A DNA stretch of 64,000 bases from Nitrosopumilaceae archaeon (lineage in GTDB: Archaea > Thermoproteota > Nitrososphaeria > Nitrososphaerales > Nitrosopumilaceae): positions 2,112,001-2,176,000 of the forward strand of contig OZ242365.1 of the NCBI GenBank assembly GCA_965208905.1. The letters are read 5' to 3'. The position numbers were made by a program, and so were the translations under genes. The stretch's first letter is position 1, and the number at the start of each line of letters is the position of its first letter. The notes below the pieces were generated by a model, which was given only the letters and a program-made list of their open reading frames with translations, made no database searches and was not told the origin of the DNA. Positions 28,388 to 43,893 of this stretch are shown piece after piece.

Positions 28388-31300
28388 TTGGATGCCGACA
28401 GTTTTGGCAAAACACTTCAACACCTTCGTACCATTTGTAATGATGAGGGTAACACCAAGGGCAGCCTCTTCGAGAAGTTGGTGCGGTCGTTTCTAAAGAC
28501 TGATAATCTGTACGCCGACAGGTTTGTTGAAGTATACGCGTGGAAGGACTACCCGGGACGTAACGGGCGGGGTGACTTTGGCGTTGATTTGGTCGGTGTT
28601 GAGCAGGATGGCCAACTCTGTGCGATACAATGCAAGTTCTTTGACAAGACAACCCTCACCAAACGCAGCATAGACAGTTTCTTGGAGGCTGGTTCGCGCT
28701 CGGAGTTTGACTCCATGATGCTGGTGTATGTGGGTGGTGGCTATGGCAAAAACGTACAGGATGCGTTGGAGGGTCATGGGTGTAAGGTGTTGAACTTCGA
28801 GTCACTGTCCGAGAGTAACGTGGAGTGGCCTGATTTGGCCGCTGGCCTGACTGACATCAAGCCTAGAAAGGCACGCCCGTTGTGGGACCACCAGAAGGAG
28901 GCGATGAGTAATGTTATATCCAAACTGGAAAACAACAACCGTGGACAGTTGATAATGGCGTGTGGGACGGGTAAGACATTAACATCTTTACGGCTGGCCG
29001 AAAAAACAGTGGGTGAGGGCGGTCTTGTGTTGTATGCAGTACCATCCATATCACTAATGCGACAGGTGATACGTAACTGGGCCGGGGACCGAACCCTACA
29101 GCATGGATATGTGGGTGTTTGCTCCGACAACACGGTGTCCCGTGGCCAGACCGACATACCAATCATAGAGATGGAGATTGGTGTGAGTACAGATGAGGAT
29201 CGTATAGCCTCGGTGATGCGCCGGGACTCCTCTAAAATGACCGTTATATTCACAACATACCAGAGTATGGAGGTTATTGAGAAGGCCCAGAAGTTGTCCG
29301 GGGAACCATTCGACTTGGTATTATGTGATGAGGCTCACCGTACCACCGGCGTAGAGAAGGGGTCGGCATTCACTATCATACATGACGATGAGAAGATACA
29401 GGCGCGCAAACGAATCTACATGACAGCCACACCAAAAATATACAAGCGCGCGGTCAAGACAAAAGCCGCCAATGAGGATGTGGTATTATATTCTATGGAT
29501 GATGATTCGGTCGAGTCCAGGAGTGTATTTGGACCGGTAATGTTTAGACTGAGTTTCTCAGATGCCATAGACGCGAAACTACTGACCGACTATGATGTGT
29601 TGACGTTGGGTGTCTCTGAGGAATATGGTGGTAAGATACTACAAAAGATTGTGGAAACGACTGGTGATGATGGCGATATTAACCTGACGGACGCGGCCCG
29701 TATGGCTGGATTGTACCGCGTGTTGGAGCGGCCAGACCCAGACAATGACGTGTTGCCACTCCAAACCGCCATAGCGTATACCAACCGTATATCTGACTCA
29801 AAGCGGTTCGCCAACAGTTTCAAGAATCTTATGATGGAGCCTGCCGGTAGTGTAGAGTTTGCTTGTGATGCCGAACATGTAGACAGTACACAAAACTCCA
29901 CCGCACGGGATAAGGCGATGCAGTGGCTACGAGATTCTGACCAGGACTCCAATGAATGTCGTGTGGTGTCTAACGCCAAATGTTTGTCTGAGGGTGTGGA
30001 CGTACCGGCACTAAGTGCGATCACGTTCTTAAACCCCAAGTCGTCCGAGATCGACATAATACAGGCCATCGGTAGGGTGATGCGGAAGCATAAAGGTAAG
30101 GAGCGCGGTTATGTGATTATACCGTTGGGGATACCACCGGACACCGAGCCTGAGAAAATACTGAATAATGAAAAGTCATTTGGTGTGGTGTGGAATGTGT
30201 TGAGGGCGTTGCGGTCACATGATTCACGGCTGGACGTAGAGGTTAATACAGCAGATTTGAAGAAACAGTTGCCTAAACGCATAAAGTTCATTGGGATAGA
30301 TAGAGAGGGAAAACGCGTCGACAATGAGGAGGGAGGAAAATCATTCTCATTGGGTGAATTGGATGTGCCAGCCGATGCATTATATTCTCGTATAGTGGAG
30401 GAGGTAGGCGACAGGCAATATCTGGCGCGGTGGGCGAACGATGTCGCAGCCGTGGTGTCCCGTATACAAGAGCGTATTGGGGTAGTGGTTGCGGACGGTC
30501 CTGCGCGAGACAAATTCGGTGCGTACATGGTGGGTCTGCGCGATATAATACACGATACAATATCAGAGTCCGAGGGTATTGGGATGCTTGCCCAACACAT
30601 GGTGACCAGACGGATATTCGGTGCTATGTTTGGGACAGATAACTTTGCGCAATCCAATCCAGTGTCGGCTGCGCTCGACGCGGTACTGAATGAGTTGCGT
30701 GCGCATGGTCTGGATACTGAGCTACGTGATTTGGAAAAGTTCTACAACTCCATAGAGTTGCGTGTCGCTGGGTTGGACTCACATGATGCCCGGCAGCGCG
30801 TTATATCTGAACTATACGGGACATTCTTCAAGAAGGCATTTTCCAAGATGGCTGACCGACTGGGGATAGTGTATACACCAACTGAAGTAGTAGATTTCAT
30901 ACTGCGGTCAGTTGACCATGTGCTGCGGGAGAACTTTGGAAGGGGACTGACCGACGAAGGGGTGAATGTGATAGACCCATTCACAGGTGCCGGTACGTTC
31001 ATTGCGCGTATGATGTCCAAGGATTTGGACTTGATACGGGATGAGGATATTGAGCGAAAGTATGAATACGAGATATTCGCCAACGAGATTGTTTTACTGG
31101 CGTATTATATCGCGGCGGTCAACTGCGAGTCCATGTATGGCCAGCGTACCGGGTCTTTCAAGCAGTTCGAGGGACTGTCATTTACGGATACGTTCAGCCC
31201 TGGTAACTTGGATGAGCACACCGGTGACGTGATGGCCGGGCCCAAGAAACGCATCAGGAGGCAGCGGGAGGCGAAGATTACGTGTATAGTGGGCAATCCA

Positions 31301-32515
31301 CCCTATTCGGCGGGGCAAAAGTCGGCTAATGAGGATAACAAGAACGTAAAATACCCTGCCATAGAGGGTCGTGTCAAGGACACATACATTAGGATGGCAC
31401 CTAAAGGGAATCAGGTATCATTATACAACTCATACATTAAGGCTCTACGGCAGGCATCTGACCGTATAGGTGAGTCTGGTGTGATAGGGTTCATCACACC
31501 CTCTGCATATATCACCGGAATTGCCGAGGCCGGAATACGTGCCTGTCTGTATGAGGAGTTTACTGATGTGTATTGTTTGGATTTACTTGGTCAAAGAGGA
31601 ATGAAAAATAATGGTAATAGTATATTTGGGAATAGTGGTAATGAAGGCGGTATAACTGTTGGAGTTGCCATAACCATACTGGTTAAGAACCCACGAAAGA
31701 GTGGATGTACTATCCATTACAGCAAACTACCAACAAACGATTTTTACTGTGAGGAAAAACGTGCTAGGGTAAAGCAGTTGGGCCTTGTGGCCAACATAAC
31801 AGACTGGCAACCAATAACCCCAAACAGGTACCACGACTGGTTAGACCAGCGTGGTGAGGCAGACGAATCATGGCAGAAGTATTTGCCCATTGGTAGTAAA
31901 GATGCCAAACGCGGGAAAACTAACAAGGTTATGTTCAGTACATATTCGCGTGGACTTGCCACAGCTCGAGATGGCTGGGTCTACAACACGTCAAGAACAA
32001 AACTTACCGAAAACATGAAGCGACATATTGACTATTGTAACACACAGGACATTGACAACTTCACAATAGACCCAAAGCAGGCGAAATATAATACGGAGCT
32101 CGCAATCGAACTCAAAAAACTCCACAAACAGAACACAGTACCCACGTTGAACGAGTCGCATATACGAACGGCGCTGTTCCGCCCATTCCTCAAACAAAAC
32201 TTGTATTTTGACCCGACATTCATTGCAGCCAAGTACAAGATTCCCAAGTTCTTCCCGCATGGCGACGTGAAGAACCCCACCATCATGGTTCCCAACAAAA
32301 CCAAAGGAGAATTCTCCACGATAGTCATGGACCGCACACCGGACCTGCAAAACGTCGTGAACGGGCAGGCATTCCCCTTGAAGGCAAAGATACAAAACCA
32401 TGAAAATGTACGTCGGGTAGGAAGACTCCAGACTCCAGACTCCAGACTCCAGACTCCAGACTCCAGACTCCAGACTCCAGACTCCAGACTCCAGACTCAG
32501 AGAATCTGTCAATAA
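28388..32515 (+). CDS. Type ISP restriction-modification enzyme (nuclease-helicase-MTase-TRD), truncated at a tandem repeat
   Basis: Mrr-like 'D.GVDLV...IQCK', helicase 'MACGTGKT', 'DEAH', 'TATP', 'QAIGRVMR', MTase 'DPFTGAGTF' and 'GNPPY', TRD 'ATARDGWVYN'. Confidence 0.92.
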   Translation: MDADSFGKTLQHLRTICNDEGNTKGSLFEKLVRSFLKTDNLYADRFVEVYAWKDYPGRNGRGDFGVDLVGVEQDGQLCAIQCKFFDKTTLTKRSIDSFLEAGSRSEFDSMMLVYVGGGYGKNVQDALEGHGCKVLNFESLSESNVEWPDLAAGLTDIKPRKARPLWDHQKEAMSNVISKLENNNRGQLIMACGTGKTLTSLRLAEKTVGEGGLVLYAVPSISLMRQVIRNWAGDRTLQHGYVGVCSDNTVSRGQTDIPIIEMEIGVSTDEDRIASVMRRDSSKMTVIFTTYQSMEVIEKAQKLSGEPFDLVLCDEAHRTTGVEKGSAFTIIHDDEKIQARKRIYMTATPKIYKRAVKTKAANEDVVLYSMDDDSVESRSVFGPVMFRLSFSDAIDAKLLTDYDVLTLGVSEEYGGKILQKIVETTGDDGDINLTDAARMAGLYRVLERPDPDNDVLPLQTAIAYTNRISDSKRFANSFKNLMMEPAGSVEFACDAEHVDSTQNSTARDKAMQWLRDSDQDSNECRVVSNAKCLSEGVDVPALSAITFLNPKSSEIDIIQAIGRVMRKHKGKERGYVIIPLGIPPDTEPEKILNNEKSFGVVWNVLRALRSHDSRLDVEVNTADLKKQLPKRIKFIGIDREGKRVDNEEGGKSFSLGELDVPADALYSRIVEEVGDRQYLARWANDVAAVVSRIQERIGVVVADGPARDKFGAYMVGLRDIIHDTISESEGIGMLAQHMVTRRIFGAMFGTDNFAQSNPVSAALDAVLNELRAHGLDTELRDLEKFYNSIELRVAGLDSHDARQRVISELYGTFFKKAFSKMADRLGIVYTPTEVVDFILRSVDHVLRENFGRGLTDEGVNVIDPFTGAGTFIARMMSKDLDLIRDEDIERKYEYEIFANEIVLLAYYIAAVNCESMYGQRTGSFKQFEGLSFTDTFSPGNLDEHTGDVMAGPKKRIRRQREAKITCIVGNPPYSAGQKSANEDNKNVKYPAIEGRVKDTYIRMAPKGNQVSLYNSYIKALRQASDRIGESGVIGFITPSAYITGIAEAGIRACLYEEFTDVYCLDLLGQRGMKNNGNSIFGNSGNEGGITVGVAITILVKNPRKSGCTIHYSKLPTNDFYCEEKRARVKQLGLVANITDWQPITPNRYHDWLDQRGEADESWQKYLPIGSKDAKRGKTNKVMFSTYSRGLATARDGWVYNTSRTKLTENMKRHIDYCNTQDIDNFTIDPKQAKYNTELAIELKKLHKQNTVPTLNESHIRTALFRPFLKQNLYFDPTFIAAKYKIPKFFPHGDVKNPTIMVPNKTKGEFSTIVMDRTPDLQNVVNGQAFPLKAKIQNHENVRRVGRLQTPDSRLQTPDSRLQTPDSRLQTQRICQ
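32423..32498 (+). repeat. Heptanucleotide tandem repeat (AGACTCC)x10 plus AGACTC
   Basis: Counted directly; encodes RLQTPDS with no stop in any plus-strand frame. Confidence 0.97.
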
Positions 32516-32621
32516 TCGTACCGGACAAGATCAAAGGCGAGTTCTCGGTATTCATAACGGATATGACACCGGACTTGGAGGTGGTTCACCACGGCCAAGT
32601 ATTCCCGATGAAGGTGATGAC

Positions 32622-33281
32622 ATGAAGGATAACATCACCGAGTGGGCGCTGGAACAATACCGCCAAATATACAAAGATGACACAATAACCAAACAGGACA
32701 TCTTCTACTACACGTATGGTGTGCTGCACAGCCCAGGATTCCGGAAGAAGTACCAGGCGTTCTTGGTGCGCGGCATCCCCAACATTCCGTACGCCCCTAA
32801 CTTCCGTGCCTTTGAGAAGGCGGGTCGCGAGCTCGCATACCTACACCTCAATTACGAGACCTGCCCACGGTACGACTTGGGCGAACCACTACATCCAATA
32901 CCGAACCAACCCAAAAAGATAGCGTTTGGTAAGAAAGCCCGCGACGGGCCTGGCCCAGACACCGCAGACGACCAGAGCAAACTCCTGTTGGATGGTATAC
33001 TGGTGTATGACATTCTCCCTATTGTTACGTATCATGTAAATGGTAAGACCCCCATTGGTTGGTTTGAGGACAGATACGGCTTTAGTATAGACCACAAGGG
33101 TAAGTCGGGCAACACTAACTGGCCACTGGAAGGTGTCGGTGGAGATACGATACGCGCCATAATAGAACGGCTCGTATACGTTGGTGTGGAATCAGATAGA
33201 ATAATACAAAACCTGCCGGAGGAGTTTGAGATGGAAGTTAAACCACAGGAGCCTACCGGCTTGGACATGTATACTGCCTGA
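32622..33281 (+). CDS. C-terminal part of the type ISP specificity domain
   Basis: 'DNITEWAL...ITKQDIFYYTYGVLHSP.FRKKY...P.IP', 'AGRELA.LHLNYE', 'Y.VNGKTPI.W' typical of type ISP C-termini. Confidence 0.88.
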   Translation: MKDNITEWALEQYRQIYKDDTITKQDIFYYTYGVLHSPGFRKKYQAFLVRGIPNIPYAPNFRAFEKAGRELAYLHLNYETCPRYDLGEPLHPIPNQPKKIAFGKKARDGPGPDTADDQSKLLLDGILVYDILPIVTYHVNGKTPIGWFEDRYGFSIDHKGKSGNTNWPLEGVGGDTIRAIIERLVYVGVESDRIIQNLPEEFEMEVKPQEPTGLDMYTA

Positions 33282-33557: not shown

Positions 33558-34679
33558 ATGAAAGGCACCACGCGAGAACTCCGGGGCAGACAGATAAAGC
33601 CCGACCAAATCGCGAAGGTTGACGAACATACCTATACAGTAAGATCCCAGTCATCCGAAGGGGTATACGAGTTGATGTCCACCGAGCACGGGTGGATATG
33701 TAGTTGTCCGGACCACATGTACCGGGGTGTCTGTTGCAAGCATATTCACGCCGTTGAGATATCCAAGAGGATGCGCGAGGCCGTCCAGCAGGGGACCATT
33801 ATACGACAGGTGGACCTGGGTAGATGCAAGCGCTGCGACTCGGACAACATTGTCAAGCAGGGGATGCGCAAACTCAAGAGGGGACCCGTCCAAGGGTACA
33901 AGTGCAAGGACTGCGGTAAGCGGTTCACGCACAATCTCGGCTTTGAGAAAAAACATGCCACACCCGAACAGATTACACAAGCCGTAGATTTGCTGTTTAG
34001 TGGCTTGTCTAGCAGGAAGGTTGCCAAGAGCCTTGAGATGACAGGCTTCAAGATCACCTACAAGACCGTTCAGAATTGGGGTAAAGAGTATGCTGAGATA
34101 ATGGAACGGTTCGCCGACACCATCAAACCACAGGTCGGAGAGACTTGGCGCACTGATGAATTATATCTGAAAATCAAAGGTAACCGCAAATATCTATTTG
34201 CCATGCTTGATTCTGAAACTCGCTTTTGGATAGCCAAGATGGTAGCCACCCACAAAGGCAATGATGACGTCGCGCCGATGTTTAAACAGGCCAAGCGTGT
34301 AGCGGGTAAAGTCCCAACTACGCTGTATAGTGACAAGGCCGCCAACTTTCACAATGCATGGAAGAAGCAATACAAATCAAAGAACTTTCTGCACAAAGAG
34401 ACCGAGCATATACATGATGTTGCCTTTGATGGTATCCACCACAATAACCAAATGGAGAGCTTCAACGGAGCAACACTACGACACCGTGAAAAAGTAACCA
34501 GAGGGCTTAAGCGTGAGGACTCTGGTATTATTACTGGATTACGACTCTACCATAACTTTGTCAAACCACATGAAGGACTCCCAGACAAAATTACACCCGC
34601 CGAGGCCGCAGGTATTGCCGTAGAGGGAGATAACAAATACCTGACCCTCATTCGAGCCGCCGCAGAGTCGGCGACTTAA
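33558..34679 (+). CDS. IS6-family DDE transposase with N-terminal SWIM finger and zinc ribbon
   Basis: SWIM 'CSCPD......CKH', 'CKRC..CKDC', HTH, DDE 'WRTDELYLKIKG', 'YSDK', 'NNQMESFN'; intact ORF. Confidence 0.88.
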   Translation: MKGTTRELRGRQIKPDQIAKVDEHTYTVRSQSSEGVYELMSTEHGWICSCPDHMYRGVCCKHIHAVEISKRMREAVQQGTIIRQVDLGRCKRCDSDNIVKQGMRKLKRGPVQGYKCKDCGKRFTHNLGFEKKHATPEQITQAVDLLFSGLSSRKVAKSLEMTGFKITYKTVQNWGKEYAEIMERFADTIKPQVGETWRTDELYLKIKGNRKYLFAMLDSETRFWIAKMVATHKGNDDVAPMFKQAKRVAGKVPTTLYSDKAANFHNAWKKQYKSKNFLHKETEHIHDVAFDGIHHNNQMESFNGATLRHREKVTRGLKREDSGIITGLRLYHNFVKPHEGLPDKITPAEAAGIAVEGDNKYLTLIRAAAESAT

Positions 34680-34691
34680 TCTCTCATTTTT

Positions 34692-34742
34692 TATGTCCCT
34701 AATTTCCCACTATACGCCATGTCCCACTGATTTCCCAGAACC
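34692..34742 (-). repeat. Right terminal inverted repeat
   Basis: Reverse complement matches 13414-13464 at 49/51 positions. Confidence 0.9.
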
Positions 34743-34875: not shown

Positions 34876-34952
34876 GCCGCCCTAGCTCAGCGTGGTAGAG
34901 CAGCGGACTGTTAATCCGTTGGTCGACAGTTCAAGTCTGTCGGGCGGCGCCA
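34876..34952 (+). tRNA. tRNA-Asn(GTT), CCA encoded
   Basis: GCCGCCC/GGGCGGC acceptor stem, D loop 'TGGTA', anticodon arm GCGGA-CTGTTAA-TCCGT, T loop 'GTTCAAGTC'. Confidence 0.95.
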
Positions 34953-36792: not shown

Positions 36793-37668
36793 ATGGATTG
36801 TGATAGATGTAAAGACAAGGCCGTGTACACGCGAAGATATTCAGGGGAGAGTCTGTGCGGCAGATGTTTCTCCCAGTCCATAGTAAGAAAGACGGCCAAG
36901 ACCATATCAAAATATAACATGATACAAAGGGGCGATGATGTAGCTGTAGCTGTATCTGGAGGCAAGGACTCGCTCTCGCTGTTACATGTCTTGAGCAAAC
37001 TATCAAAGAGTGGGGGATATACCATAAGAGCGGTTACAATCGATGAGGGTATACCAGGTTATAGGGACGAGGCCTTGGAGATAGTGGACAGATACTGTAA
37101 TGATATGGGTATTCAGTATTCCGTACTCAGCTACAAGCAGATGTATAACACAACACTACAAGAGAGGCTGGATCAACGCACAGACAATACATCATCGTGT
37201 TCACTGTGTGGTGTGTTGAGACGACAAGCCATTGAGCAAGCTGCTACAGATGCAGATGTAATTGCCACTGCCCATAATATGGATGACTACATACAAACAT
37301 TTCTTATAAATACAATGTCCGGGGACGTTTCACGGATAGGACGAAATATTATAGGTGCGTCTAGACGTGTACAACCATTCTGCAATATATACGAGTCTGA
37401 GATTGTCTTTTATGCGTTTATCAATGATATACCCTTTCAGAGCGAACCATGTCCCCACATGGATGAGGGAATCCGTACCAGTATACGTGAATTTCTAAAC
37501 GAGTTAGAAGAGAAGCACAGTGGAATAAAAAACAACATGAACAAGTCCATTCAAAAGATAGCCAATTATGTTCAGGATACCAAAGTGCGCAAGACTTGCC
37601 AGATGTGTGGTCAGCAGTCAACTACTGAAGTCTGCTCAGTATGTCGTATGTTGGAGCGGACGGCATGA
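36793..37668 (+). CDS. tRNA 2-thiolation protein (TtuA/Ncs6 family)
   Basis: N- and C-terminal Zn fingers, 'SGGKDS', 'CSLCGVLRR', 'TAHNMDD', 'PCPH'. Confidence 0.9.
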   Translation: MDCDRCKDKAVYTRRYSGESLCGRCFSQSIVRKTAKTISKYNMIQRGDDVAVAVSGGKDSLSLLHVLSKLSKSGGYTIRAVTIDEGIPGYRDEALEIVDRYCNDMGIQYSVLSYKQMYNTTLQERLDQRTDNTSSCSLCGVLRRQAIEQAATDADVIATAHNMDDYIQTFLINTMSGDVSRIGRNIIGASRRVQPFCNIYESEIVFYAFINDIPFQSEPCPHMDEGIRTSIREFLNELEEKHSGIKNNMNKSIQKIANYVQDTKVRKTCQMCGQQSTTEVCSVCRMLERTA

Positions 37669-37850
37669 CTTTATGCGGTTGATGTACACCTCTGAGCAGG
37701 CATACTCTGCATCGCATTATACACACAGGATACTGGAATATATGGTCTTGCGCATGTATCACAATAGGTCTGTATCATATACAAAATAGTATTAAAATTC
37801 TGGTCTGATGACAGCCTGGGAGTGTCATTATACAAATTTTCGTATTAAAT

Positions 37851-39310
37851 GGGAATTACATACAAAAGTACACAGCCTTGGGGTTCTGAGAGTCAGGTGG
37901 GTTTCGTGACTACGTCAATCTTCTTAAATACCAGTATACCGTATTACACATCATGATACGGATAGTCAAGGTACCGCTACGAAGAGATGTGTTGTTTGCA
38001 GAGTGGGCGCACCACACGAATCATGCGTCAAGATACGTATACAATCGCGCCGTCTCGGAGTATTTGTATAGTGAAAAGTACTTCAAGAGGGTTGTGGTGG
38101 ATATACTACACCCGTTCAAGTTACCCGGTAAGTCGAGTTTCACGACAGGTATGTTGGATGACTACTATCAGGCGTATGATTTTAGCCCGTCAAAGAGGGC
38201 ATTGAAGTATGGTATGTTCAAGCAGCTTACGGGGTGGCGCGCTGAACATACATGGCTACGCGAGTGCCCCATGGTGTTTGGCCGCGGTGCTATACAGGAT
38301 GCCTCGGTTGCATGTAGGAGGGTTGTAGAGGACAATTCAAACCATACACCGTACCGCCGCAAAGATGGCCGCATCATACTTAGTTCTATTACGCCACCCA
38401 TATGGAAAGACAATCATACGGTACGAATACCCGGATATGGTATTGTAAACACGGCAAAACCAATAGACGAAGCATGGGACATGCGCTCATTCAAGATAGT
38501 TGATGTTACAAAACATGTGGACAAGCATACAAAGCCATCTGATCACATGTTCGAGCTGCATATAGCCGTGTATACACCGGTAAAACCACACCGTAATACG
38601 GGTACAATACGCGGTGTGGACGTTGGCGGCAAGCACCTGGCGGTCACGGTAGACACTGATGGCAATATTGTGATACATAACACCAGACACAAAAAGATAC
38701 TGCGGGAGATTGACGCGCTCAAAAGCCTGCGTGACCATAAAAAGAAACATAGCCGGAAGTGGCATGTATTGAACGACCAAATCAAACGATTATACAGGAA
38801 GGCTGACGGCATTGCCGTGAATACCATAAACCAGACTGTATCACGTGTTGTACAGGGTACGGATGCCGTCATAGCCGAGATACTATCCATACAGGACATG
38901 ACCGCACATGGTGGGAACTACAAAAAACACATGAACCGTTCCATGCGGGAGAATAGGCTTGGCGAGTTCCTGCGGAAGTTGGCGCAGCGATGCGAAAAAG
39001 AAGGCATTCCATTGTGTGGGGTGATGGCCAACTATACAAGCCAGACGTGCCATGTGTGTGGTCATGTAGATTCGGAGTCGCGTATATCACGCGACCAGTT
39101 CATTTGCACTAATTGTACCAGAGTATTTCACGCGGACGTAAATGCCGCCTGGAATATTCTGTATCGGGTGGCGGGGAACGTCATCCTTAGACGGCCGGAG
39201 CATAAGGAGGGTTACAAGCCAACACCCACCATGCTCTATACTATACAACGAGGCCGTCAGAAAAGGCATGAGTGTACGGCTGAGGCTGTGTACTTTTGTA
39301 TATAATTCCC
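37851..39310 (+). mobile_element. Non-autonomous TIR element carrying tnpB
   Basis: 28-bp TIRs GGGAATTA(C/T)ATACAAAAGTACACAGCCT at 37851-37878 and 39283-39310; 8-bp TSD TATTAAAT at 37843-37850 and 39311-39318. Confidence 0.85.
37953..39305 (+). CDS. tnpB: RNA-guided endonuclease TnpB
   Basis: RuvC I 'GVDVG', RuvC II 'IAEIL', Zn finger 'TSQTCHVCG...CTNC', RuvC III 'ADVNAAWNI'. Confidence 0.9.
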   Translation: MIRIVKVPLRRDVLFAEWAHHTNHASRYVYNRAVSEYLYSEKYFKRVVVDILHPFKLPGKSSFTTGMLDDYYQAYDFSPSKRALKYGMFKQLTGWRAEHTWLRECPMVFGRGAIQDASVACRRVVEDNSNHTPYRRKDGRIILSSITPPIWKDNHTVRIPGYGIVNTAKPIDEAWDMRSFKIVDVTKHVDKHTKPSDHMFELHIAVYTPVKPHRNTGTIRGVDVGGKHLAVTVDTDGNIVIHNTRHKKILREIDALKSLRDHKKKHSRKWHVLNDQIKRLYRKADGIAVNTINQTVSRVVQGTDAVIAEILSIQDMTAHGGNYKKHMNRSMRENRLGEFLRKLAQRCEKEGIPLCGVMANYTSQTCHVCGHVDSESRISRDQFICTNCTRVFHADVNAAWNILYRVAGNVILRRPEHKEGYKPTPTMLYTIQRGRQKRHECTAEAVYFCI

Positions 39311-39348
39311 TATTAAATAAATATCGCATGTCTTTTTACTATAACAAA

Positions 39349-40881
39349 ATGAAATTCATATTCATAATTATGTTAATGGTGGGCATCTCCATCATACCTG
39401 CCGCTTTTGCAGAGCACGAGCAGGTCACAATTACTATACAACCCAAAGGCGCAACCTGTGAGATGAATGATCCGTGCTTTACACCAAATACTGTAACTGT
39501 AAATACTGGAAGTGAAGTGGTATGGTACAATGGCGATGATGGGCCTCGCAACATTGTGATTGCCACATTGGGAGACTGTACTGCAGATATGGATGCATGT
39601 ATGTTTGATGATTCTGAAAGTCTAATCAACACAGCCTCAATACTTGTGAGTACCACCATACACGAGAATGATAAATACAGTATGGTATTTGATGAGATTG
39701 GAACTTTTCCCTTTTATGATCCAAACTATGCAAGAACTCCCGGAACCATTACAGTTCAAGAATCTCCAGATACAGAAGAGTATCGTAAAATTACAATTGG
39801 TGGCGTGTTTGACATTACGGGAAGTTGGGCGCTAGTTGGTGATGAAACAAAGACTGCCACAGATATAGCGGTTGTTGACTTTAACAAATTTCTTCATGCT
39901 ACAGGAGCAGATTGGCGACTTGCAATACAGATAGAAGATAGTCAGGCCAATGGTAATGTTGCTCTAGAAAAAGTGTCGTCACTAAATGGTAGAGGGGTAG
40001 ACCTCTTGGTGGGTATGGCACTAAGCTCGCATATTCGTACCTCGTATAACTACATAGAGAGCAATGACATGCTTGTAGTAAGCTGTTGTTCGACTGCTGC
40101 AACTTTGGCCATAGAAGATCACATATTCAGACTTAGGCCCGATGACAGTAGGCAGGCTCCGGCGATGAACGCCATGCTAGAAAACGCTCAGATAGAGGTA
40201 GTATACATGATAAACCGAAATGATGCTTGGGGCGATGGTTTCAAGAATGGTATACGAGATATATTTGATGGAGTGTTTGTAGAGGGAATCAGTTATGATC
40301 CAAATCAAAGAGACTACTCTGTTGAGGCATCCATAATAGATGAAGACATAAAAAAACTAATTGATGAGTATGGTGCCGAGAAGGTCGGTGTATTCTACGT
40401 AGGCTTTGATGAATTGATACTGCTGGTCGAAACATTGGAGAATTACCAGCATGCGGCGCAGGTGAGATGGTTCGGTTCCAACACACAGGCTGATGCAGAT
40501 CAATTCATAACAAATCCCACATCTGTAAGGTTCTTTGAGACGACAAACTTTACAGCAGTAAAGACTGTGACACCAGATAATCTCATACGACAGTATCTTG
40601 ATGGTAGGATATCGGAGATATATGACCGCGAGCCTAGCATATACAGTCACTCTGCATACGATGCCATCTGGCTTCTGGGATATGCAATACACATGACACA
40701 GAGTACTAATCCGGACGTGTTGAAGAGTGCGATACCACTGATAGCAGAAAGAATGACTGGCTCTTTTGGATACCTACGACTCAATGATGCAGGCGATGTA
40801 GCCACAGAGTCCTATGAGATATGGTCCGTACGCGACAGTCAGTGGGTAATGGAGTATACCTATGACACTGGAGTCAAGTAA
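39349..40881 (+). CDS. Secreted cupredoxin-like domain fused to a branched-chain amino-acid ABC substrate-binding domain
   Basis: Signal 'MKFIFIIML..PAAFA'; 'CFTPNTVTVNTGSEVVWYN.D'; type 1 periplasmic-binding features 'IEDSQ', 'FRLRPDD', 'YDAIWL', 'G.LRLN.AGD'. Confidence 0.8.
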   Translation: MKFIFIIMLMVGISIIPAAFAEHEQVTITIQPKGATCEMNDPCFTPNTVTVNTGSEVVWYNGDDGPRNIVIATLGDCTADMDACMFDDSESLINTASILVSTTIHENDKYSMVFDEIGTFPFYDPNYARTPGTITVQESPDTEEYRKITIGGVFDITGSWALVGDETKTATDIAVVDFNKFLHATGADWRLAIQIEDSQANGNVALEKVSSLNGRGVDLLVGMALSSHIRTSYNYIESNDMLVVSCCSTAATLAIEDHIFRLRPDDSRQAPAMNAMLENAQIEVVYMINRNDAWGDGFKNGIRDIFDGVFVEGISYDPNQRDYSVEASIIDEDIKKLIDEYGAEKVGVFYVGFDELILLVETLENYQHAAQVRWFGSNTQADADQFITNPTSVRFFETTNFTAVKTVTPDNLIRQYLDGRISEIYDREPSIYSHSAYDAIWLLGYAIHMTQSTNPDVLKSAIPLIAERMTGSFGYLRLNDAGDVATESYEIWSVRDSQWVMEYTYDTGVK

Positions 40882-42783: not shown

Positions 42784-43893
42784 TAGTTAGGTGCATAAAT
42801 AACCCGACACCAGTTTTACACCGGTAGGATTTTGTCTAAATTTCTGAACAGAATGCTGCGCGGATCAAACTTTATTTCCAGCGACTCGTATATCCGCATG
42901 ATTTTCCTCCGGAAATATCTCTTGGCAGGTCGCTTGAAAGTCCGCCGTATCCTTGCCTTGCCGTTGAGCCACAGCCATTCGGCCGGATTCAGAAATGGTG
43001 AGTACGGCGGCAGAAATATTAGTTTGATGAAATCACTATTCTTTTTCAAGTATCGCTTTACGCGGCTAGAGTTGTGATATGCAGCATTATCCAGTATTAC
43101 GGCAACCTTGCCGAACCGTTTTTTCGTCTTGTTCAAATATCTGATAAAGGACCTGTCGTTGGCCTTGCTAGCGGCCATATAGCATGTCTGCCCATCTAGC
43201 GTGATGCCACCGTATATGGTCTGGCGCTGGTTGCCGAGTGGCGTTTGTACCGGTATGGCATCACCGCGTGTATAGACTGCGCCGCTGCCAAACATACTTA
43301 AATTTTGGTGGCTTTCGTCTACCATCACGAGTGTAAAACCGTCCTTTTCAAACATTTCTGCCTCCTTTTTGGTGTCTTTCTGCCAGATTTCGAGATCTTT
43401 CCTTGGTGGAATTCGGTCGGATATCCGGGGAGTCTTCCGTATAGTGAAGCCAAGAGACCTAAGGATACGGCGCGCTTGTGATTCGCTGTATTTTATGCCG
43501 GTCTTTTTCTCAGCCAGTTTAACAAATCCGTAGGCGGTAAATCGCTTGACACCGTTAATTATGTTCTCTAATGTGTGGCGCGGTACGAAAGATGGACGGC
43601 CAGGCCTCGCACCATCGGCGAGGCCATCCAGGCCTTTGTGGTCGTAGGCATTAAGCCAATCATATATGGTGCTACGATCGACACCAAGCACATCCGCTGC
43701 CGCAGAGATGGTATATCCTTTAATGCGCACCATGTTTACGGCTACGATACGGGCGTGCTGTGTCGCACTCTTAGTCTGTTTTAGGGCAGCCTTTATTTTT
43801 TGGGCATTAGTTTGGTTATTCATATAATTAGTTAGTAATTTTGATCATTTATGTATTTCTAATAGAGTGTAGGATTATTTATGCTCCCAACTA
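42784..43893 (-). mobile_element. IS630-family insertion sequence (intact)
   Basis: Imperfect 27-bp TIRs TAGTT(A/G)G(T/A)GCATAAATAA.CC.ACAC; TA duplication at 42782-83 and 43894-95. Confidence 0.9.
42816..43823 (-). CDS. IS630-family transposase
   Basis: HTH, 'VDES', 'ILDNAAYH', 'LPPYSPFLNPAEWLW'. Confidence 0.93.
   Translation of the reverse strand: MNNQTNAQKIKAALKQTKSATQHARIVAVNMVRIKGYTISAAADVLGVDRSTIYDWLNAYDHKGLDGLADGARPGRPSFVPRHTLENIINGVKRFTAYGFVKLAEKKTGIKYSESQARRILRSLGFTIRKTPRISDRIPPRKDLEIWQKDTKKEAEMFEKDGFTLVMVDESHQNLSMFGSGAVYTRGDAIPVQTPLGNQRQTIYGGITLDGQTCYMAASKANDRSFIRYLNKTKKRFGKVAVILDNAAYHNSSRVKRYLKKNSDFIKLIFLPPYSPFLNPAEWLWLNGKARIRRTFKRPAKRYFRRKIMRIYESLEIKFDPRSILFRNLDKILPV

Follow-up and report, generated by a model that had tools for sequence, protein, structure and literature searches.

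The locus described here raises the questions of which enzyme mobilizes a tnpB gene that is enclosed by terminal inverted repeats (TIRs) and what an RNA-guided nuclease contributes to such an element. The window, i.e. the whole stretch of 64,000 nucleotides that was analysed, corresponds to G000:C1:2112001-2176000 of an archaeal genome (2.21 Mb, one contig, completeness 99.57%). The unit extends from 37851 to 39310 (1,460 bp; plus strand unless stated otherwise) and is placed between a ttuA-like gene and a gene for a secreted binding protein, the latter 38 nt downstream. Its left TIR (37851-37878), which starts with GGGAATTA and is similar to the ends of IS1595 elements, is identical at 27 of 28 positions to the right TIR (39283-39310, minus strand), and both are bordered by the 8-bp target site duplication (TSD) TATTAAAT at 37843-37850 and 39311-39318. 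Repeat comparison bore out this structure, which had been proposed in a preliminary description, and the alignment of the TIRs with the open reading frame also placed the tnpB stop codon (39303-39305) within the right TIR, as had been stated there. The TIR/TSD unit is not due to chance, since 17 two-ended copies (family A) are present in G000. Twelve of the 17 TSDs are perfect, one has a single mismatch and four have two to six mismatches, none of the intact ones being alike. All 17 copies extend from TIR to TIR, 14 contain an intact ORF, and 15 near-full-length copies are 77-98% identical at the nucleotide level.

Metagenome contigs from three studies (X5, X8 and X9, all three DNA runs examined) join position 37842/3 to 39311/2. 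They lack 1,468 bases, i.e. the element and one TSD, and also show near-identical element ends in other flanks. In the relative G005, both flanks align at 90% with an overlap of eight bases and a single TATTAGAT, so that the site is empty in this relative and the TSD occurs once; in the other eight congeners, alignment to the site was restricted to ttuA. The stretch is also present in sponge metagenomes. The unit is a mobile element bounded by TIRs, which duplicates 8 bp upon insertion and is polymorphic between strains. The further copies with different TSDs and the single-TSD empty site that the preliminary description had led one to expect were thus found, and none of the copies ends at an IS605-type hairpin internal to the TIRs: all end at the TIRs, and no stable hairpin of this type was detected at the left end (MFE -8.3, shuffle mean -9.3). 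Three family A fragments (L011-L013; G000:C1:1493807-1494006, 1694379-1694542 and 2197132-2197325) hold the final 165-200 nt with the whole predicted RNA scaffold and the right TIR, but neither a left end nor a TSD. Such fragments could be remnants or guide loci that stand alone; no perfect target for their flanks is present in the G000 genome. At the locus itself, the TSD (39311-39351 region) lies within a TATA-like stretch 38 nt ahead of the downstream gene, and the insertion may therefore have swapped the upstream element of that promoter for the TIR.

The tnpB gene (37953-39305) encodes a protein of 450 amino acids, whose assignment is based on profile search, alignment, structure model and fold search. 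It scored 135 bits on the NF040570 guided_TnpB profile (cut-off 100) and remained below the IS-specific cut-offs (74.7 vs 425 bits on NF038281 for IS200/IS605; 74.7 vs 350 bits on NF038280 for IS607). An AlphaFold model (pLDDT 71, tail 409-450 below 50) gave the TnpB complexes 8iaz (E 4.7e-17) and 8h1j as top Foldseek matches. The three RuvC acidic residues ascribed to the protein were all found (D223, E309 and D395) and, like the four cysteines of a C4 zinc finger, are kept in the 14 intact family A ORFs. Among 25 aligned proteins D223 and D395 are invariant, E309 being present in at least 90%. The dN/dS ratio of the 14 ORFs is 0.19, and dS drops from 0.53 to 0.26 across the last 58 codons, the last ~40 codons of tnpB overlapping the predicted RNA scaffold. 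These values indicate purifying selection on both the TnpB protein and the RNA. The sequence TTAAATA (37924-37930), located ~26 nt ahead of the tnpB start and found in 17 of 17 copies, is probably an internal archaeal promoter. A scan for sigma-70 promoters, a model ill-suited to an archaeon, remained at shuffle level.

Close homologues of the protein are labelled Cenarchaeum sp. and Nitrosopumilaceae. A search of the genus yielded matches with E<=1e-30 in seven of nine congeners and in none of 51 other genomes, and a scan of metagenome contigs returned nothing but distant TnpBs (best E 3e-19); at the two of 80 loci that were inspected for these TIRs, no pair was present. Of 41 clade proteins (E<1e-80), 31 have CI or SI as C-terminal end, a dipeptide encoded by the TIR, so that the association of this TnpB clade with this TIR end is an old one.

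In G000, neither Y1 transposases (PF01797) nor resolvases (PF00239) had a match. By an unbiased TIR/TSD scan of this genome, four intact IS1595 elements were detected that start with GGGAATTATA, have 8-bp TSDs and encode IS1595 transposases. The three ORFs scanned reached 173-177 bits on NF033547; the proteins of two of the four elements are identical. The family A TIR matches the IS1595 ends in 13-15 of 20 bases in G000, the first 10-13 being identical, and in up to 19 of 20 in G005. A TSD of 8 bp is the norm for the IS1595 family, as given in the accessible part of PMC8101967. In the relative G001, a 2,562-bp element with such ends and a perfect 8-bp TSD (L077; G001:C9:21605-24166) contains an intact IS1595 transposase gene (169.7 bits, cut-off 75) followed by tnpB (121.5 bits, cut-off 100), and L079 is its frameshifted sister, likewise with two genes and a perfect 8-bp TSD. 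The TnpB of L077 is of the B type and ~28% identical to that of family A; among the elements examined, none combined an A-type tnpB with a transposase gene. Judging by the same TIR start and the same 8-bp TSD, IS1595 is most likely the partner of family A. From the ends and the two-gene element we strongly infer that a resident IS1595 transposase moves the unit in trans. The earlier proposal of a TnpB captured by a DDE-type non-autonomous element gains support from these data, and the IS1595 elements are candidates for the autonomous partner. IS1595 elements with these ends also carry other passengers, namely DNA methyltransferase genes that have an HNH-like tail (L002, L003, L081, L083, L085).

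A one-sided motif was identified at the insertion sites of family A. With tnpB defining the orientation of the copies, G immediately precedes the left TSD in all 13 TSD-intact copies (15 of 17 if the four copies with two to six TSD mismatches are included) and occupies the mirror position in three of 13. TNG occurs in ten and ATNG in eight of the 13 copies, compared to a background of 0.22 (G) and 0.06 (TNG) ahead of comparable AT-rich 8-mers. The enrichment of G at this position (-1) has a p value of 3e-9, or 5e-7 after 160 tests. TnpB-less IS1595 elements (n=10, G000 and G005) have G at -1 in two cases and on either side in four, which differs from family A (Fisher 9e-5). A-type copies in G006 show G at -1 in four of five cases, a count from which three more A-type copies (G006, G001) without clean TSD or left end were excluded. 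The family A copies are related, so p values for sequence features are overstated; their insertion sites are independent of each other. At the present locus, TTCG (37839-37842) directly 5' of the left TSD is the candidate TAM by position, and we infer a TAM of the form (A)TNG for the family. The possibility that family A seeks promoters was rejected: neighbouring genes show no preferred orientation (7 vs 10 upstream and 9 vs 8 downstream, based on crude ORF calls) and lie at variable distances, and an upstream TATA signal outside the left end was found in only one of 13 copies.

The RNA partner of TnpB is predicted at the 3' end of the element. MFE, covariation and the drop of dS point to a scaffold at 39120-39310 with an uncertain 5' limit. 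The 3'-terminal 221 nt (39110-39330) fold far better than shuffles (MFE z = -4.65), and 93% of the helix cells pair in an alignment of 26 copies (A2). Double-change cells (35 vs 12) and the covariation score of A2 exceed all 500 shuffles, while the remaining two of four covariation measures are no higher than in the shuffles; relatedness of the copies inflates these tests. From folds and complementarity, a hairpin at 39166-39186 was identified whose loop GGGAA (39174-39178) is complementary to 39306-39310, a predicted pseudoknot. Its pairs are without compensatory change in A2, and the loop region is also coding. A terminal scaffold hairpin is predicted at 39270-39295, its 3' arm being the inner half of the right TIR. 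The alignment A2 does not bring this hairpin into register between sub-clades (83% paired), and its covariation was therefore judged from single folds.

The loop varies together with the element end. GGGA loops are present in 16 of 16 family A and five of five G006 copies, GGTT loops in none. In families D and E, which end with GAACC, GGTT loops were found in four of eight and ten of 11 copies and GGGA loops in none; in families B and F, GGAAT loops occur in 16 of 16 and three of three, a motif chosen after inspection of the folds. Loop-end complementarity gave no cross-matches between families at a background of 1-4%, the counts representing a handful of independent lineages rather than dozens. 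In the accessible part of Yoon et al. (PMC10711439), it is described that the apical loop pairs with five nucleotides flanking the guide and that the pseudoknot is needed for ISXfa1 activity. Insertion motif and pseudoknot both place the scaffold/guide boundary at the first base of the TSD, so that the right TSD and its flank (39311-39330) are the predicted guide. The earlier suggestion of an omegaRNA that includes the right TIR and of a guide starting at the TSD is in line with these predictions (motif, fold and loop-end match). A scan of 37600-39500 against Rfam revealed no RNA family and two chance-level matches. Contigs of an RNA run (X18) cover the flanking genes and three short pieces of the element; contigs of this kind cannot show a small RNA. 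The guide 20-mer (39311-39330) has no other copy within three mismatches in G000, and for none of the 17 predicted guides does this genome contain a perfect second target, the nearest having two to three mismatches. The lack of self-targets is compatible with an active nuclease, at which it may faintly hint.

At least six further TnpB families (B-G) are present in G000, and those with resolved ends are also located in TIR shells; the ends of family F in G000 are partly resolved and were left out of the counts. Families D and E (e.g. L006, L007) share near-identical TIRs (GGTTCCTCCCGCAA) and 8-bp TSDs; at three further IS1595-like loci, no partner transposase for this TIR was found. Their motifs ahead of the TSD differ: TTG in five of seven counted copies of D (nine in total) and WTA in all nine counted copies of E (13 in total; A at -1 in D vs E, Fisher 9e-4). 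In family E, TA is found 8 bp beyond the end, in agreement with the published DDE-5 branch, and C follows at TSD position 1 in eight of nine copies. Family C, with a different TnpB and a similar TIR, has G at -1 in three of three copies and in one more. In family B, represented by 16 copies from five genomes, the TIRs start as in family A, TnpB looks intact and the loop matches the element end; the -1 position shows no motif (G7 A6 T2 C1 of 16). Its loci include L004, L098, L099, L104, L107-L112 and L114, with GC-rich TSDs in relatives.

The strongest control for the motif is provided by the relative G003 (L243-L278). Its A-clade TnpBs reside in another type of shell, which has TAGCG... ends and duplicates TA, and for which 113 matches to the end pattern were obtained. 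One pair of TAGCG ends encloses IS630-like fragments, all under the family cut-off; of an IS630-like transposase, nothing but fragments was detected in G003, and most of its A-clade tnpB copies are broken. In a quick IQ-TREE run, a G003 protein grouped with the A clade (support 91-95), and A, B, C and F were united at 94, unstarred. Within 40 loci (the best 30 of the 113 pattern matches and ten others), G precedes TA at 14 of 15 tnpB left ends vs 12 of 37 other ends (Fisher 1e-4), four of these 12 resembling left-end variants missed by the filter. Retention of G at -1 in a TA-duplicating shell indicates that the motif accompanies the nuclease clade in both shells. The homologous loop in G003 is GAGCG or GAGCA. 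Among 15 such hairpins, the element end was located for 12; in these, loop positions 2-5 pair with the new end in 10, 12, 10 and 11 copies, and position 1 is G-A. By these sequences the pseudoknot loop appears to follow the element end across shells, which constitutes a natural experiment on the adaptation of an omegaRNA to new transposon ends.

We consider it probable that the unit is a non-autonomous IS1595-type transposon with an active TnpB and its omegaRNA as sole cargo, activity being predicted from the sequence. An RNA that stems from the element's final ~150-190 nt and overlaps with the tail of tnpB would fold as the TnpB scaffold and be closed by the pseudoknot on the last five bases of the TIR, so that the guide would begin with the 8-bp TSD and continue into the flank. 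The empty allele, consisting of TAM, TSD and flank, would then be a perfect target, regardless of whether it results from precise excision across the TSD or comes from another strain; precise healing across the 8-bp repeat is a step introduced by this analysis. The filled site would be spared because the guide is matched over no more than 7-9 nt at the left junction and TCCC occupies the place of the TAM at the right one. Cleavage of the empty allele followed by repair from the filled allele would restore the element, a scheme that was proposed for TnpB in the discussion of Altae-Tran et al. (PMC10691335). Insertions beside a TAM would persist and others would be lost over time. The absence of the motif from autonomous IS1595 elements favours such selection in cis over a choice made at insertion. 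If the model holds true, the problem of a long variable TSD is solved, since the TAM lies outside the TSD and the TSD serves as the guide seed. Moreover, the model names the TAM, the scaffold end and the guide of a compact nuclease.

Several observations have to be weighed against this model. T is enriched at TSD position 1 in family A (15 of 18 vs three of 20 sides of TnpB-less IS1595 elements), which the model does not explain and which counts against it. Together with the first two TSD bases, for which all 13 TSD-intact copies have A or T, and with the G003 shell, which always supplies TA at this place, it could reflect an active nuclease with a boundary as in Fanzors or IS607, where the TAM reaches one or two bases into the TSD (TNG-TW), these bases form part of the scaffold and the guide begins with TSD position 2 or 3. 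Flanking bases are indeed absorbed by IS607 and Fanzor scaffolds according to the accessible part of PMC10711439. On the other hand, the loop pairs through the last TIR base, and the pseudoknot described there concerns the five nucleotides flanking the guide; its register is identical in both shells, and IS1595 TSDs are AT-rich regardless, so this boundary is a minor possibility. Gene-less MITEs with G on at least one side (four of five) count against the model as well. They would fit a motif that stems from the transposase or a host factor, e.g. promoter-bound proteins, with a TnpB that is intact but passive or otherwise employed. Family B, with its lack of a -1 motif, counts against the model too and points in the same direction, as a TATA-like 5-mer occurs 17-28 nt outside its left end in ten of 16 copies vs none of 16 on the mirror side, showing that something other than a TAM can generate a one-sided signal; the G at -1 of family C, with its different TnpB, is of the same kind. 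We nevertheless regard this explanation as unlikely, since TnpB-less IS1595 elements are at background, the motifs of D and E differ despite near-identical TIRs, and the G is retained where the TnpB clade occupies an unrelated shell that duplicates TA. Furthermore, A copies vary in their orientation and distance relative to neighbouring genes, their upstream TATA signal is almost lacking, and protein and RNA are under purifying selection.

A motif chosen at integration would arise if TnpB and its omegaRNA, which contains TIR sequence, brought the transpososome to TAM sites. With G in 13 of 13 copies at a background of 0.22, selection alone must remove about four fifths of the insertions, and G at -1 tends to occur also at broken or deleted family A copies and at MITEs, as such steering would predict. 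However, autonomous IS1595 elements in the same cells and family B are without the motif, contact between the two proteins would have to be assumed, and the RuvC residues of TnpB are fully conserved. The transposon-targeting Cas12k, by contrast, is not known to have a fully conserved RuvC. Steered insertion is, in our opinion, quite unlikely. Just as doubtful is its extension to a two-component TnpB-directed transposon, in which TnpB, via its TAM, would decide where a borrowed DDE transposase integrates and would act as a portable module that swaps between IS1595 and IS630-like shells, keeps the TAM and rewrites the pseudoknot loop. An ordinary IS1341-type (IS200/IS605) tnpB element nested in an IS1595 MITE would agree with the common occurrence of TnpB in IS200/IS605 and IS607, as outlined in the available text of the review PMC13565253. 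This reading is hardly credible and is practically refuted by the 17 copies running TIR to TIR, the lack of Y1 and resolvase matches in G000 and the location of the stop codon and the terminal RNA helix inside the TIR; the TIR-encoded CI/SI ends of 31 of 41 clade proteins and the missing left-end hairpin argue against it as well.

The favoured model of an IS1595-borne, self-restoring TnpB unit has precedents in part, which were compared by means of the accessible text of the respective papers. Altae-Tran et al. (2023, PMC10691335) reported inverted repeats for six DDE-associated TnpB branches (DDE-1 to DDE-6) as well as solo TnpBs that share the same ends and are thought to move in trans, and their supplement states that in DDE-5 the predicted end is preceded by a TA motif located 8 bp upstream. 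The surprise expressed initially at a TnpB within TIRs was therefore overstated. Like the unit, which may itself belong to one of them, the six branches, compared here by text description, have inverted terminal repeats, a tnpB 3' end near the transposon end and solo copies. DDE-5 also resembles family A in its motif 8 bp outside the end, the TA itself corresponding to the family E motif; it differs by a rearranged catalytic site, whereas the unit has canonical D/E/D spacing and TNG. As partner, the text of that paper names IS630 only, and ISL2, IS630 and IS1031 are listed in the consulted part of a 2026 review (PMC13565253) where IS1595 is not named and TnpB in prokaryotic DDE transposons is called rare and mechanistically unexplained. 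Passenger-carrying non-autonomous derivatives of IS1595 are similar to the unit in their GG-starting TIRs and 8-bp TSDs; their partner elements encode a zinc-finger and DDE transposase, which the unit lacks (PMC8101967). The passenger of the unit is an RNA-guided nuclease, and the right TIR incorporates parts of both its gene and its predicted RNA.

The unit resembles the IS200/IS605 TnpB-omegaRNA systems (ISDra2, ISFba1, IS1341-type) in its best structural matches (8iaz, 8h1j) and, by prediction, in a scaffold over the tnpB tail, a pseudoknot between loop and 3' end, a TAM on the left and a guide on the right. Unlike them, it is bounded by TIRs and a TSD where hairpin ends would be expected, it resides in a genome without a Y1 match, and the 8-bp TSD lies between its candidate TAM and the element end. 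IS607 does not match either, as the genome gave no resolvase match and the unit has TIRs and a TSD. The parallel to Fanzors drawn in the preliminary description stood up in so far as these too are nucleases in TIR elements with the TIR, in the unit by prediction, within the RNA scaffold; it failed with respect to the TSD, which in Fanzors forms TAM and scaffold and here apparently the start of the guide. The archaeal host, in place of a eukaryotic or viral one, the predicted retention of the pseudoknot and the canonical RuvC-II position are further differences (PMC10711439, PMC13565253, accessible text): the Fanzor RuvC-II glutamate is six residues ahead of the zinc finger, while E309 precedes C366 by 57 residues (PMC13565253). 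The unit thus falls outside IS200/IS605, IS607 and Fanzor and seems to work like an IS605 TnpB system moved into an IS1595 shell. In the literature searched, with most subscription journals outside its scope, neither the naming of IS1595 as a TnpB partner nor a treatment of the TSD as guide was encountered. TnpB with DDE-type TIRs and solo copies were already known in outline; IS1595 as partner and the TSD as guide are apparently new. Why TnpBs seem to be tied to IS200/605 and IS607 was posed as a question by Yoon et al. (PMC10711439, accessible text). G000, whose TIR shells hold tnpB copies by the dozen and which gave no match to a canonical TnpA, bears on this tie.

Elsewhere in the window, a large helicase/methylase-like ORF (28388-33281; motifs recognized by eye) ends in tandem DSRLQTP repeats and is followed by an ORF that is apparently its continuation. 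An ORF for an IS6-like transposase with an N-terminal extension (33558-34742) precedes an end matching 171-bp MITEs (GGTTCTGGGAAATC) and a tRNA-Asn gene (34876-34952). At 42816-43823 (minus strand), an IS630 transposase gene (162 bits) interrupts a repetitive surface-protein gene, and the family A copy at G000:1972621 contains an ORF that shares its N-terminus with this transposase.
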